Positions 13,739 through 19,882 of a stretch of 64,000 nucleotides of DNA are shown piece after piece. Below the pieces are notes generated by a model. That model had not been told where the DNA came from. It did not search any database and was given only the letters and a program-made list of their open reading frames with translations. Source of the stretch: Escherichia coli (GTDB lineage Bacteria > Pseudomonadota > Gammaproteobacteria > Enterobacterales > Enterobacteriaceae); NCBI RefSeq assembly GCF_044324875.1, contig NZ_CP172185.1. One strand, written 5' to 3'. Made by a program: the position numbers and the translations under genes. Each line of letters opens with the position of its first letter. The first letter of the stretch is position 1.

Positions 13739-16000
13739 TCATCCCCGACGCAAATTCTGCGCCGCCTGCACCATGTTCGCCAGTGCCGCGCGGGTTTCTG
13801 GCCAGCCGCGCGTTTTCAGGCCACAGTCCGGGTTGACCCACAGACGCTCTGCCGGAATGCGTTTTGCCGCTTTCTTCAGCAAGGCTTCAATCCATTCCAC
13901 GCTCGGTACGTTTGGCGAGTGAATGTCATAGACGCCAGGACCGATTTCATTTGGATAATCAAACTCTTCAAACGACTCCAGCAACTCCATGTCGGAACGC
14001 GAGGTTTCGATGGTGATGACGTCTGCGTCCAGCGCCGCAATCGAATCCATGATGTCGTTGAACTCGCAGTAACACATGTGAGTGTGGATTTGTGTGTCAT
14101 CTTTCGCCACGGCGGCGTTGATACGGAAAGCCTCCACGCCCCACTGGAGATAGGCATCCCAGTCGCCGCGACGCAGCGGTAAACCTTCGCGCAGTGCCGG
14201 TTCATCAATCTGGATGATGCCAATTCCAGCGGCTTCCAGGTCCGCCACTTCATCACGCAGCGCCAGCGCAATTTGTTTGGCGATGGTTTCACGGCTGACA
14301 TCTTCACGCGGGAACGACCAGCAGAGAATGGTCACCGGGCCGGTCAGCATCCCTTTCACCGGTTTGTCAGTCAGCGATTGCGCATACTTCGCCCACTCAA
14401 TGGTAATCGGTGCCGGGCGGCTAACGTCACCAATGACAATCGGCGGCTTCACGCAGCGGGAACCGTAGCTCTGTACCCAACCGTTTTGCGTAAAGACAAA
14501 ACCGTCGAGATGCTCGCCAAAGTATTCCACCATGTCATTACGCTCGGCCTCGCCATGCACCAGCACATCCAGACCTAAACGTTCCTGCTCAACAATGGCC
14601 TGCTTGATATGTTCCGCAATGCCCGTGCGGTAGTTGTTGGCGTCGAGATTACCCTTTTTGAAATCCAGACGCAGGGTACGAATTTCCGTGGTTTGCGGGA
14701 AGGAACCAATCGTGGTGGTCGGCCACGCGGGCAGTTTAAAACGCGCACGCTGGGCTTCAGCACGCACTTCATAGACATTCGCACGCTGACTGTCCTGAGC
14801 GGTGATCGCCGCCAGACGCTTTTCTACTGCCGGATTATGTACGCGGGTTGAGTGACGACGCGCCTGAATCGGAGCGCTCCACTCTGCCAGAGCAGCCGTG
14901 TCACCACTGTTCAGCGCATCGCGCAGCAGTGCCAGTTCATGACATTTTTGCAGGGCGAAGGCAAACCAGCTTTTCACTTCTGCATCAAGACGCGTTTCCA
15001 CGCTCAGGTCGATGGGGCTGTGCAGCAGTGAGCAGGAAGATGCCACCCACAAATCGCGTTTGCCGACAATGTCCTTAATTTGCGCATACTTCTCGGTAAG
15101 ATCGGCGCGCCAGACGTTACGACCATTGATCAGACCCGCAGACAGCAGCCAGTCAGAAGGCAGACGCTTGTGCAGTTCAGCAACGTCATCTTTACCATGT
15201 ACAAGATCGACATGCAGACCCTGAACAGGCAGCGCAGTAATCGTGTCGAGATTTGGCGTTACGCCTTCAAAATAGGTGGTCAGCAGCAGTTTCACCTGTC
15301 CCTGGAGCGCGTCGTAAGCGGGTTTGTATGCGTCCAGCCACGCCTGCGGTAGTTCCAGTACCAGCGCTGGTTCGTCGATCTGTACCCACTCAATACCGCG
15401 TTTTGCCAGTTCTGCCAGCACTTGCTGATAAATCGGAAGAATGTCGTTCAGCAGGCTCAGGCGATCAAACTGTTCACCTTTCACTTTACCCAGCCACAGG
15501 TAGGTAACCGGCCCCAGCAGCACAGGTTTCACCTTGTGGCCCAGCGCCAGCGCCTCGTCCACTTCCTCCAGCAGCTGCGTCCAGGTCAGTTTGAACTGTT
15601 GGCCTTTAACGAACTCCGGCACCATGTAGTGATAGTTGGTGTTAAACCATTTGGTCATTTCCGCTGCCGCCGCAGGTTCACCAGTCGGCGCACGTCCACG
15701 ACCAATACGGAACAGGGTGTCGATATCTACCGAACCATCTTTGTTCTGATGACGTGGCGGAACATTACCCAGCAGCAGACTGGTGGTCAGTACATGATCG
15801 TACCAGGCAAAATCGCCCACCGGCAGCAGGTCGATACCCGCCTGCTTTTGTTGATCCCAGTGACGGGCACGTAATTCACGCCCAACCGCCAGCAGTTCTT
15901 CACGCGTGGAGTTCCCCGCCCAATAACTTTCTTGCGCTTTTTTCAGCTCGCGACGCAGGCCAACGCGAGGGAAACCGAGGGTGTGATTCAATATTGTCAT
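13739..16000 (-). CDS. metE: Cobalamin-independent methionine synthase
   Basis: 753-aa ORF beginning [29 protein letters not shown]; recognised as MetE. Confidence 0.95.
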
Positions 16001-16235
16001 TTTTCTTCCTCTAATTATATGTAAATCCTATGGATTTTGAATTTAGGGAAGGCGGCAAGTTTATTCATCCCCGGGAGCTTACTGAAGTAAGTGACCGGGG
16101 TGAAGAAACGCAGCCAACGCACCATAAATTTAAAAGACGAAGGATTTTAGCCGTCCAGATGTTTACACATCCATAATTGGCGGTTACTGTATATTCCTCA
16201 AGCGCAAATTATTCATGCCGAAGTGAAGGACTTTC
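16001..16235. promoter_or_regulatory. metE-metR divergent promoter/operator region
   Basis: Intergenic region between divergently transcribed metE and metR; MetR and MetJ are known to act here. Individual operator sites not resolved by eye. Confidence 0.5.
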
Positions 16236-17189
16236 ATGATCGAAGTAAAACATCTGAAAACGCTACAAGCGTTGCGGAACTGCGGCTCGCTCGCAGCCGC
16301 TGCGGCGACGTTGCATCAGACGCAATCCGCCCTGTCTCACCAGTTTAGCGATCTGGAACAACGCCTTGGCTTCCGGCTATTTGTGCGTAAGAGCCAGCCG
16401 CTTCGCTTTACACCGCAGGGAGAAATCCTGTTGCAACTGGCAAATCAGGTGCTGCCGCAAATCAGCCAGGCACTGCAAGCCTGCAATGAACCGCAGCAGA
16501 CGCGTCTGCGCATTGCCATCGAGTGCCATAGCTGTATTCAGTGGCTGACGCCCGCGTTAGAAAATTTCCATAAGAACTGGCCGCAGGTCGAGATGGACTT
16601 TAAATCGGGCGTGACGTTTGACCCGCAGCCTGCGTTGCAACAGGGCGAGCTGGATCTGGTGATGACGTCAGATATTCTGCCGCGCAGTGGCCTGCATTAT
16701 TCGCCGATGTTCGATTATGAAGTGCGTCTGGTGTTGGCACCTGACCATCCGCTGGCGGCGAAAACGCGTATTACACCGGAAGATCTCGCCAGCGAGACGC
16801 TGTTGATTTATCCGGTGCAGCGTAGTCGACTGGATGTCTGGCGGCATTTTCTTCAGCCAGCAGGCGTCAGCCCGTCACTGAAAAGCGTCGATAACACCTT
16901 ATTGTTGATTCAGATGGTTGCCGCGCGGATGGGTATTGCCGCACTACCGCATTGGGTGGTGGAGAGTTTTGAACGCCAGGGTCTGGTGGTGACCAAAACC
17001 CTGGGCGAAGGCTTGTGGAGCCGACTGTACGCCGCCGTGCGCGATGGCGAGCAGCGTCAGCCGATTACAGAAGCGTTTATTCGCTCAGCGCGCAATCACG
17101 CCTGCGATCATCTGCCGTTTGTGAAGAGCGCGGAGCGACCCACTTACGATGCACCCACAGTGAGGCCAGGATCACCAGCGCGCCTGTAA
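16236..17189 (+). CDS. metR: LysR-family transcriptional activator MetR
   Basis: 317-aa ORF with N-terminal HTH ([37 protein letters not shown]); recognised as MetR. Confidence 0.9.
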
Positions 17190-17976
17190 TAAACGTTGGC
17201 CAGTGCGGCTGTTGGTGCCAGATAGCCAGGTTTACCAGCAGCCCTGCCGGAACGTGCATATTATTCATAATGCCCAGCGTTCCGGCGTCCACCTGCGTCG
17301 CGCCGTAGTTCCACATAAAGTAGCCAATCCCGGAAGCCACCACGCCAAGAAACACCAGAATGCCCCATTGCAACGTGGTTTGCGGCATTTTCTGCGCATT
17401 TCCCAGCAAGAACCATGCAATCACCGCCACCAGGAACGCGCCAAGATAGAACCACGCAAAGGCGTTATGCTGCGGCATCGGGCGAGTTTCCATCAGACGT
17501 TTGTAACCCACCATGCCGATGGCAAAAGTGATATTGGAGAGCTGCACCAGCAGCAGGCCAGTCCAGAAGTGGTCGGTGACCTGATCATAGCGAATAATCC
17601 CGGCACCAATCACCGCCAACAAGGCGCTAAAAGCATAGCCCCAGCGCAGACGGCGCTGACTCATGATGTCATAAATCAACGTGATGTAGAGCGGCGTCAG
17701 TACGGTGAACAGCAGCAGCTCGGAGACCGTCAGGTAGAGATAGGCGCGGAAACTCAGCATATACATCACGCCGAGCTGCATCGCGCCTACCAGCATATAC
17801 AGGCCGACCGTTTTCAGGCTATTGCCACGGGTACGCAGAAACGGCAGAAAAACCAGTGCCGCCAGGCCAACGCGCACCAGCACTGCAAAATAGCTATCGA
17901 CGTGCCCCGCAAGGTACTCGCCATAAAAGCTAAAGGAGAAGGCCCACAGAATCGTGGTGATGATAAGTAGCGCCAC
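17077..17976 (-). CDS. yigM: EamA/DMT-family inner membrane transporter YigM
   Basis: 299-aa polytopic membrane ORF; conserved position convergent with metR, with 3' ends overlapping by ~113 bp. Confidence 0.8.
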
Positions 17977-18051
17977 AATGGAAAACTCTTTGATTAACGA
18001 GTATCCATTGTAGCGAAGTATCAGGTTGACAACTGACCAAATAAAGAACGA

Positions 18052-18852
18052 TTACGATAAATAGAGCTTACGCAGATAATGCGGCACTGCGTCCTCGGCG
18101 TTAGTACCAATCACTTCCAGTTCCGGATGCAGATCTTTCAGACGCTGGTGCGCACTGCCCATAATGCAGCCTTTCCCCGCCATCGACAGCATTTCGGCGT
18201 CGTTCATCCCGTCACCAAACGCAATACAATCTTGCAGGCTGTAGCCCAGTTTCTTCGCCACCGCTTCCAGCGCATGACCTTTCGACACGCCGCCCGCCAT
18301 CACTTCCAGACAGGTTAAGGTAGAGAAACTGACGTTGACGCGATCGCCCCAGCGAGCGTTGATCGCCTGCTCCAGCGGCAGAAGTTGTTCATGGGAATCG
18401 CAGGTGAAGAACACTTTGCTGACGCCTTCCGGCTCCAGTAATCCCGGCTCATACAGCGCATATTTGAACACCGCTTCTTTAAAAAAGCGCATCTCTTCCG
18501 GGCGATGGCGATTCATAAACCATTCGTCGTCGCGATAAACGTTAGTAATGATGTCCGGATTGTCGTTGACTACGCCAAACAGATCGCTGGCAATGTCGCG
18601 ATCCAGGTTATGAGCAAAAATCAGATTGCCATCCAGATCGTGAACGCGCGCGCCATTGGAGGTAATCATGTAAGACTTAATCTCCAGATTATCGCGAATT
18701 TGCCCCACATCAACGTGGTGACGACCGGTCGCAAACACAAAGTTGATGCCGCGCGCGGTGAGCAGCTTCAGAGTTTCTTTGGCGTAAGGGGATAACGTAT
18801 GGTCGGGAGAAAGTAACGTGCCATCTAAATCAGACGCAACAACCTGGTACAT
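18052..18852 (-). CDS. yigL: Cof-type HAD phosphatase YigL
   Basis: ORF track begins at 18978; the HAD motif start MYQVVASDLDGTLL gives a 266-aa protein starting at ~18852, immediately after the pldB stop. Confidence 0.85.
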   Translation of the reverse strand: MYQVVASDLDGTLLSPDHTLSPYAKETLKLLTARGINFVFATGRHHVDVGQIRDNLEIKSYMITSNGARVHDLDGNLIFAHNLDRDIASDLFGVVNDNPDIITNVYRDDEWFMNRHRPEEMRFFKEAVFKYALYEPGLLEPEGVSKVFFTCDSHEQLLPLEQAINARWGDRVNVSFSTLTCLEVMAGGVSKGHALEAVAKKLGYSLQDCIAFGDGMNDAEMLSMAGKGCIMGSAHQRLKDLHPELEVIGTNAEDAVPHYLRKLYLS

Positions 18853-18859
18853 AAGAAAT

Positions 18860-19882
18860 TTAAACCTCTGTAGAGCGGTTTCCGCTGGGTGAGTTATGCC
18901 TGTTGAAAAAATCAACGATGGCGTGGAGCGCGACTGAGCGCATTGCGTCCTTTTCAAAAAGGATCTCATGGTACGCACCTTTAATTACCAACGGCCGTCC
19001 TCCTTCGACAGGATGGCCCGCGGCAGTGCGGAGTTCACAAAAACGGTCGTGCATGCGGTTATCCACCACGCGTTCCTCTTCAGCTTGTAAGAGAAGCGTT
19101 GGCGTGGTGTCATCACCCGCACCGGCTAACACCTGTTCGCCAGCCAGAATACTTTCGCGTACCCAATGGTAGGTCGGCCCACCGACGCGAATCGTTGGGT
19201 CATCAGCATAGAAGCGTAAGTTACGTCGATATCGCTGTCTGCTGTGGGTCAGTACGTTGATAGCAAACGGCAACGCGCGCCAGCGCCCGGTGCCTATTGC
19301 ATAGCCATCACGGAAACGTGGATGCGCTTCGGCCCAGTTGAGGATCTGCCGTGCCATAAATGACGGCATACGAATCACGATCCCAAACATTGGCGCAGTT
19401 AGCGCAATGGCGTCACATACACCTGGATGGCGTTGCAGAAATAATGTGGAGATCGCACCGCCCATTGAATGTGCCAGTATATAGCGTTTACGCCACGGAC
19501 CGGGCTGAACCTCCTGTTGCCAGAATGCCGCCAGATCATCAACATAATCATTAAAGCGATTAACATGCCCGAGATGCGGATCGGCTAACAGGCGACCGGA
19601 ACGTCCCTGCCCGCGATGGTCGATGATTAAGACATCAAACCCCAAATGGAACAGGTCATAGGCCAGTTCCGCATATTTTACGTAGCTCTCAATACGCCCC
19701 GGGCAGATGACTACCACCCGGTCATGGTGCTGTGCGCGAAAACGGACAAAGCGCACCGGAATGTCATCCACACCAGTAAATTCTGCTTCATCACGCTGAC
19801 GCCAGAAATCAGTCAGCGGTCCCATGGTAAAAGCAGCAAACGCGTTTTCTCTTGTTTCCCAGTCTTTTTGCTGCTGAAACAT
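18860..19882 (-). CDS. pldB: Lysophospholipase L2
   Basis: 340-aa alpha/beta-hydrolase ORF (GHSMGG motif); conserved position. Confidence 0.85.
   Translation of the reverse strand: MFQQQKDWETRENAFAAFTMGPLTDFWRQRDEAEFTGVDDIPVRFVRFRAQHHDRVVVICPGRIESYVKYAELAYDLFHLGFDVLIIDHRGQGRSGRLLADPHLGHVNRFNDYVDDLAAFWQQEVQPGPWRKRYILAHSMGGAISTLFLQRHPGVCDAIALTAPMFGIVIRMPSFMARQILNWAEAHPRFRDGYAIGTGRWRALPFAINVLTHSRQRYRRNLRFYADDPTIRVGGPTYHWVRESILAGEQVLAGAGDDTTPTLLLQAEEERVVDNRMHDRFCELRTAAGHPVEGGRPLVIKGAYHEILFEKDAMRSVALHAIVDFFNRHNSPSGNRSTEV

Follow-up and report, generated by a model that had tools for sequence, protein, structure and literature searches.

A conserved 113-bp tail-to-tail overlap of metR and yigM (bioP) in Escherichia coli, analysed zone by zone and across the Enterobacterales

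Introduction

Two genes that converge until each carries the stop codon of the other raise the question of what keeps such an arrangement in place: whether both proteins need the residues that the shared DNA encodes, whether the overlap serves to couple the expression of the two genes, or whether each gene end simply rides upon its partner. One such pair, metR and yigM (bioP), lies in the 64,000-nucleotide stretch of Escherichia coli DNA analysed here (hereafter the window; RefSeq assembly GCF_044324875.1, contig NZ_CP172185.1).

In a survey of 338 genomes the convergent orientation was judged the only one able to hold genuine overlaps of >60 bp, and most long convergent overlaps were conserved in very close species only (Palleja et al., 2008; PMC2478687). 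The conserved long convergent overlaps of Rogozin et al. (2002), so far as they are described where cited in PMC2478687, resemble the metR-yigM pair in that two real genes share >60 bp at their 3′ ends. The metR-yigM overlap in E. coli has itself been remarked upon (Cote et al., 2016, mBio; PMC5120140), and at the level of the feature there is no difference between the overlap in the window and the annotated K-12 bioP-metR overlap, with the same locus and the same 113 bp involved. The feature is real and ordinary, and it is already annotated and published; the new additions made here are a zone-by-zone analysis of selection and a comparison across families.

Results and discussion

Two genuine genes share their 3′ ends

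The overlap is tail-to-tail, and both the ORF list and the sequence place it exactly where a first-pass annotation, made from the letters of the DNA, had put a metR/yigM 3′ overlap of ~113 bp (Table 1). Across the overlap the first codon positions of the two genes face one another, and position 2 of either gene lies against position 3 of its partner; the residues encoded by the overlap are 281-317 of MetR and 263-299 of YigM. The same annotation had described both ORFs as protein-like with their stops inside each other, a description with which the family matches and the K-12 annotation agree. MetR matches the NCBIfam equivalog NF011950 over positions 1-317 of 317 (741 bits) and contains the Pfam domains HTH_1 (residues 5-63) and LysR_substrate (86-288), whilst YigM matches TIGR00950 over residues 11-273 (308 bits) and its best stretch against Pfam EamA stops at residue 275. 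Among solved structures, PDB entry 5fo5 is the DNA-binding domain of E. coli MetR and the Neisseria MetR effector domain structure 4ab5 aligns to E. coli MetR residues 87-296; a PDB search found no related solved structure for YigM. RefSeq names yigM ‘bioP: biotin transporter’, and the function of BioP/YigM has been demonstrated experimentally (PMC5120140, PMC10038027).

Table 1. Coordinates of the metR-yigM junction, of the zones distinguished within it and of the published Rho termination region, as positions in the window
Feature	Coordinates	Strand	Description	Constrained part	Riding part	Basis
metR CDS	16236..17189	+	317 aa, LysR-type regulator MetR; stop TAA at 17187-17189			ORF list
yigM/bioP CDS	17077..17976	-	299 aa, DMT/EamA-family biotin transporter; GTG start at 17976, stop TAA 17079->17077
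Convergent overlap	17077..17189	both	113 bp
Zone A	17143..17189		varies at yigM position 3 = metR position 2	YigM aa 263-278, end of last TM helix	MetR aa 303-317 and stop
Zone B	17130..17142		essentially invariant	YigM W279-V-A-P-R283 and MetR A299-E-R-P302	no riding tail
Zone C	17077..17129		varies at metR position 3 = yigM position 2	MetR aa 281-298, end of effector-domain region	YigM aa 284-299 and stop
Rho region, best coordinate	about 17348 (K-12 4011704, +)	-				converted via the K-12 annotation; PMC7815308

Long overlaps in prokaryotic annotations are frequently erroneous, and a sequencing or annotation error could mean that one of the two proteins truly ends earlier and that there is no overlap; such an earlier end is what the first-pass annotation had named as able to undo its claim, and it had proposed the K-12 annotation as the place to look. 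In K-12 MG1655, bioP is annotated at 4011076..4011975 (+) and metR at 4011863..4012816 (-) with an identical 113-bp overlap (b3827/b3828), so that in E. coli neither protein terminates earlier. The stop codons are read straight from the sequence, and since stop codons, unlike starts, are set by sequence, the overlap is not a matter of annotation choice. Identical stops are present in K-12, in strain Ecol_316 (100% identity with the window at this locus, and the overlap annotated alike) and in 71/81 Enterobacteriaceae sequences (the window plus the best 80 of 179 hits), the 317-position MetR equivalog model is matched end to end, and deletion of metR abolishes bioP function, as expected if the bioP frame enters metR (PMC5120140). 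We rejected an erroneous gene end on the strength of the identical stops in K-12, Ecol_316 and the species survey, and regard it as having next to no chance of being correct.

K-12 and the window strain differ at a single residue per protein (99.7% identity), and the locus was found in 5425/5426 complete E. coli genomes. The exception is E. coli Z135-6 (NZ_CP159632.1; our locus L003, 2007-3186), in which ~1.2 kb carrying a 636-nt hypothetical gene replaces the junction. This replacement spans the 3′ half of metR, the entire overlap and the 3′ portion of bioP, with metR and bioP each annotated as a partial pseudogene; both were lost through a single event.

The proven practical consequence of the overlap is a genetic one, in that deleting or engineering either gene damages its partner. 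Because the metR deletion of the Keio collection disrupts yigM, it shows synthetic lethality with bioA as well as sensitivity to MAC13772, an inhibitor of BioA (PMC5120140); in effect the strain is mutant in both metR and bioP. From the design of that collection, the yigM mutant should conversely encode a MetR cut off after about residue 287. Care is therefore needed when a phenotype is attributed to either gene.

Conservation of the overlap across the Enterobacterales

The species survey used YigM as the query with one genome per species, and the best 80 of 179 hits, on which the following counts rest, were all Enterobacteriaceae with 81-99% identity. A convergent, overlapping metR was kept in 80/80 of these species, and direct frame scanning gave an overlap of 113 bp in 70/80, 116 bp in 7/80, 98 bp in 2/80 and 68 bp in 1/80; with the window included (n = 81 sequences) the 113-bp length was found in 71/81. 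Both genes are real, each includes the stop of the other and orthologous loci keep the overlap, which makes metR-yigM a convergent overlapping protein-coding pair.

Beyond the Enterobacteriaceae, a Yersinia contig, whose MetR is identical to that of Y. kristensenii, retained the 113-bp layout, and a Dickeya dadantii contig had an overlap of 98 bp. In Serratia odorifera the overlap was 56 bp, with a MetR of 324 aa and a YigM of 286 aa. In Mixta gaviniae (MetR 307 aa, YigM 281 aa) the genes are convergent and lie 471 bp apart, and in Pantoea agglomerans metR is present without yigM downstream. In contrast to most of the long convergent overlaps surveyed by Palleja et al. (2008; PMC2478687), the metR-bioP overlap thus spans at least three Enterobacterales families; the pair was not found in the supplementary tables of that study.

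Across the Enterobacterales MetR is conserved to about the ‘RP’ at residue 302, beyond which its total length ranges from 307 to 324 aa, and YigM orthologues are 281-299 aa long. Two short YigM variants, of 285 aa in Salmonella Gaminara (a cluster of 66 members) and of 284 aa in an Enterobacteriaceae bacterium (42 members; locus L034), both terminate directly past the conserved WVAPRS motif. In the outgroups Vibrio and Microbulbifer the YigM orthologues, of 294 and 292 aa respectively (the latter labelled a biotin transporter in its source), are encoded at other genomic sites, and their tails are short and not conserved.

Several side observations were made during this comparison. The tail of the 324-aa S. 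odorifera MetR (L092, 3400-3475), ...RPNASVATVKPLAPPNGDAPIAKL, resembles an in-phase repeat of ~13 codons, and by arithmetic there is a 39-nt difference between its junction and the E. coli one, which points to a short duplication where the genes end. The M. gaviniae spacer (L091, 3425-3895) encodes an uncharacterized 82-aa ORF. Frameshifts in yigM recur at about residues 205-250 in metagenome and SRA assemblies (L084 Dickeya, 1158-1300; L089 Yersinia, ~2730-2810; P0128), giving chimeric or truncated protein calls, and are probably assembly errors.

The constrained frame switches within the overlap

The junction alignment (713 columns; 81 sequences, i.e. the window and the best 80 of 179 hits) is gap-free, with no indels, and its per-column variability showed that the constrained frame switches within the overlap, dividing it into the three zones of Table 1. 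Zone B corresponds to alignment columns 347-359 (13 nt) and varies only at columns 352 (80/81) and 354 (76/81), with dS at 0.08 for the YigM reading frame and 0.14 for that of MetR. Pairwise Nei-Gojobori estimates gave YigM a dN/dS of 0.08 in its non-overlapping part (dS 1.06), 0.18 in residues 263-278 within zone A (dS 0.78) and 3.09 in the tail formed by residues 284-299 (dS 0.05). For MetR the corresponding values were 0.05 in the non-overlapping part (dS 0.89), 0.05 in residues 281-297 within zone C (dS 0.54) and 1.85 in the tail formed by residues 303-317 (dS 0.17). A tail dN/dS above 1 with a tiny dS is the expected artefact, because the ‘synonymous’ sites of each tail are the second positions of its partner, and it is not evidence of positive selection.

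The constraint that each tail places on its partner was read from third positions. The third-position entropy of YigM was 1.12 in zone A compared to 1.10 outside the overlap, and since it is unchanged the MetR tail imposes essentially nothing on YigM. In MetR, third-position entropy was 0.64 in zone C compared to 0.95 outside, i.e. one third lower, and near-invariant third positions numbered 5/17 in zone C against 6/90 outside (Fisher p = 0.014, from species that are not independent). This lower synonymous variability in MetR implies that the YigM tail is weakly constrained, e.g. at S284 and E299. Purifying selection in both frames was not found outside ~13 nt, and the truly doubly constrained stretch is 17130-17142 only. 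The first-pass annotation had implied two fully functional coding regions superposed on one another, which does not hold up: the substitution pattern is mostly that of one constrained frame under one loose tail.

Stop positions and C-terminal tails

Each stop codon is spelled by conserved residues of the partner. The codons for MetR F281-I282 (TTT ATT), read as their reverse complement, supply the yigM stop; TTC would also yield a stop (TGA). In the same way the codons for YigM I263-T264 (ATT/ATC followed by ACA) provide the metR stop, as TAA or TGA. When codons were resampled with the partner protein held fixed, using the codon usage of 38 long ORFs of the window, the observed end site was recovered in 51% of trials for the MetR tail and in 55% for the YigM tail. 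Once conserved gene ends abut in the present phase, an overlap of the observed length is thus the outcome that chance yields most often.

The tails themselves are hypervariable, with 73-74 distinct tail sequences among the 81 (the window and the best 80 of 179 hits). Some of their sites are held fixed all the same. YigM E299 and S284 are fixed at sites that are synonymous in MetR. Opposite the MetR tail, YigM V268 is encoded by GTG in 78/80 species (best 80 of 179 hits), where GTT or GTC, which account for 34% of Val codons elsewhere in yigM, would stop MetR at 312 aa. Similarly, YigM H276 is CAT in 80/81 sequences (the window included with the best 80 of 179 hits), which keeps MetR D305; CAC would alter that residue. 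Together with the CGG codon of MetR R297 (below), these fixed synonymous sites may indicate that selection acts to some extent on the tails or against their truncation, in species that are not independent samples. In an AF2 model of YigM (mean pLDDT 92.8, above 90 for most of the protein), the last 20 residues have a pLDDT of 73-74 and prolong the final helix to residue 298; the AF2 model of MetR, built from 26 close orthologues, had a mean pLDDT of 38 and was not used. Judged by its sequence variation, the MetR tail looks neutral and the YigM tail weakly constrained. That the tails are dispensable is independently favoured by the end of the 4ab5 alignment at MetR residue 296, by the variable length of MetR past residue 302, by the natural YigM variants of 284 and 285 aa and by the drop in model confidence at the YigM C-terminus.

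As small cases of codon choice dictated by an overlapping gene, MetR F281 is TTT in 81/81 and I282 is ATT in 80/80 sequences (window 17077-17081; best 80 of 179 hits), with the result that the yigM stop is held at TAA and the last YigM residue at Glu, and MetR R297 (17124-17126) is encoded by the rare codon CGG in 62/64 species, forced by YigM S284.

True dual coding, in which each C-terminal tail has a function and the overlap persists since neither protein can do without any of its residues, would account for the nearly fixed stop positions in the 81 sequences (the window plus the best 80 of 179 hits), for the reduced synonymous variability of MetR opposite the YigM tail (p = 0.014), for the two unusually fixed YigM third positions opposite the MetR tail, and for the extended last helix of the AF2 model. 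It fits poorly, however, with the apparent dN/dS of 1.85 and 3.09 in the tails when the partner frames show a normal 0.05-0.18 with near-normal dS, with the number of distinct tails, and with the range of lengths that both proteins show across the Enterobacterales. Only ~13 nt are doubly fixed, and we regard dual coding of the whole overlap as quite unlikely.

We consider it very probable, instead, that the junction is a real and old tail-to-tail overlap of two unrelated functional genes, in which the constrained ends abut and the tails ride on the partner. The constrained end of MetR (to about aa 302) and that of YigM (to about aa 281-284) would abut with an overlap of ~8-14 nt. With neither a stop nor a spacer between these ends, each frame would run into its partner until conserved residues there spell an antisense stop, and the resulting 15-16 extra codons per protein would be tails that are mostly by-products of partner constraint. 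The 113-bp length would be constant in the Enterobacteriaceae through conservation of the stop-creating partner residues, with the length itself not selected. The origin of such an overlap is most simply explained by loss of a stop or spacer and read-on into the neighbouring gene. There would then be no double function at this locus, rather two dispensable tails pinned by the conserved residues of the partner, with termination left to Rho. The zone analysis and the cross-family comparison make the overlap less mysterious, not more, and the pair offers a clean textbook case of the persistence of long convergent overlaps.

Transcription through the junction and its termination

The first-pass annotation had argued that the overlap leaves no space for terminators, and a terminator scan of 16700-17600 bore this out, calling no intrinsic terminator at the junction; the sole site, at chance level, lies inside metR at 16790. 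No GC-rich hairpin with A- and U-tracts that could act as a shared bidirectional intrinsic terminator was found. In the bidirectional intrinsic terminators of convergent E. coli genes two opposing transcripts likewise end in a small space; the metR-bioP junction differs in being without a hairpin and U-tract and in having a reported Rho region instead (PMC7815308). An 8-bp inverted repeat (17247-17254/17278-17285) that folds well and is located 58 nt beyond the stop of metR was rejected as a conserved element: all of its pairs are intact in 9/81 sequences (best 80 of 179 hits), without compensatory changes.

Given the lack of both an intergenic space and an intrinsic terminator, the two mRNAs must each enter the antisense strand of the neighbouring gene. 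Antisense transcription through both 3′ ends was also claimed in the first-pass annotation, which had proposed strand-specific RNA-seq over the junction as a check, and published stranded data already supply the answer: bioP-metR, a member of the core E. coli ‘excludome’, is among the 165 convergent overlaps of MG1655 that were detected in half or more of 58 stranded RNA-seq samples (ExcludonFinder, NAR 2025; PMC12288877).

Rho probably ends both mRNAs, acting on untranslated, C-rich antisense RNA; such termination is published for the yigM strand (PMC7815308) and would be expected for the metR strand. On the yigM-sense strand, the region of Rho termination reported by Adams et al. (2021, supplementary file 2; PMC7815308) has a score of 5.07 and a significance of 1.3e-12. 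Its best coordinate (Table 1) comes from a comparison of 800-nt windows, so the true site may be anywhere around the yigM 3′ end or antisense to metR. Adams et al. (2021; PMC7815308) report neither Term-seq 3′ ends for metR or yigM nor a Rho region labelled metR. The C/G ratio is 1.4-1.55 within the initial 200 nt beyond each stop, a C-rich composition of the untranslated antisense RNA that, as a sequence feature, suits Rho loading.

The spacer of M. gaviniae contains a predicted hairpin of -25 kcal/mol just after the metR stop, together with a hairpin predicted at -18/-19 kcal/mol on both strands, flanked by A/U tracts, that adjoins the yigM stop. A simple terminator scan of this 471-bp spacer called nothing despite these predicted hairpins, and their role as terminators is suggestive.

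A possible regulatory role for the overlap

Overlapping transcripts of this kind could make up a regulatory excludon, in which the overlap exists to couple the two genes through polymerase collision or through RNase III cleavage of the sense/antisense duplex (113 bp plus); transcription of metR, derepressed at low methionine/SAM, would then interfere with bioP, or the reverse. The call of bioP-metR among the 165 convergent excludons of MG1655 (PMC12288877), the missing terminator between the two genes and the retention of the arrangement in the Enterobacteriaceae, Yersinia and Dickeya are all consistent with such a role. The ExcludonFinder criterion is, however, automatically true for any expressed pair with overlapping coding sequences and is silent on reciprocal regulation. 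The pair is like the catalogued excludons in its RNA-seq coverage (PMC12288877); classical excludons have a long UTR overlap and mutually exclusive expression, whereas the metR-bioP overlap is coding and hence unavoidable. In the literature we found no report of anticorrelated or reciprocal metR-bioP expression, of RNase III processing or of mutually exclusive expression of the two genes. In addition, Rho curbs read-through in the yigM-sense direction (PMC7815308), the lineages in which the overlap is lost or shortened (Mixta, Pantoea, Serratia odorifera) retain both genes or an intact metR, and coding constraint in the partner accounts for the conservation. We therefore think a regulatory excludon unlikely, and the idea, raised in the first-pass annotation, that metR regulation is coupled to yigM expression through the overlap is a conjecture.

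A working excludon would tie a methionine/SAM regulator to biotin uptake, and bioP output could then depend on metR promoter activity. SAM is consumed at several steps of biotin synthesis. That such a link operates, with the fixed synonymous sites (YigM V268 GTG and H276 CAT; MetR F281 TTT and I282 ATT) reflecting selection on the duplex or on the tails, seems to us very unlikely. Unless regulatory coupling is shown, the finding raises no new question.

Neighbouring features in the window

An Rfam search of 15900-18200 found no known RNA family in the overlap. Its lone match was a sub-threshold one to V_AS5 (‘Vibrio RNA AS5’) at 16026-16144 (+), in the divergent metE/metR control region, which covers the full length of the model, scores 28.7 bits (gathering score 96; E = 0.002) and probably represents chance or shared regulatory sequence. 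A second apparent overlap lies nearby, where the mechanical ORF of yigL (18052-18978, -; 308 aa from a GTG at 18978) extends 119 bp into the 3′ end of pldB (18860-19882, -). In K-12 and RefSeq yigL is annotated as 801 nt (18052-18852 in the window) with a start 7 bp past the pldB stop, and the co-directional yigL/pldB overlap is therefore an artefact of ORF calling, unlike that of metR and yigM.
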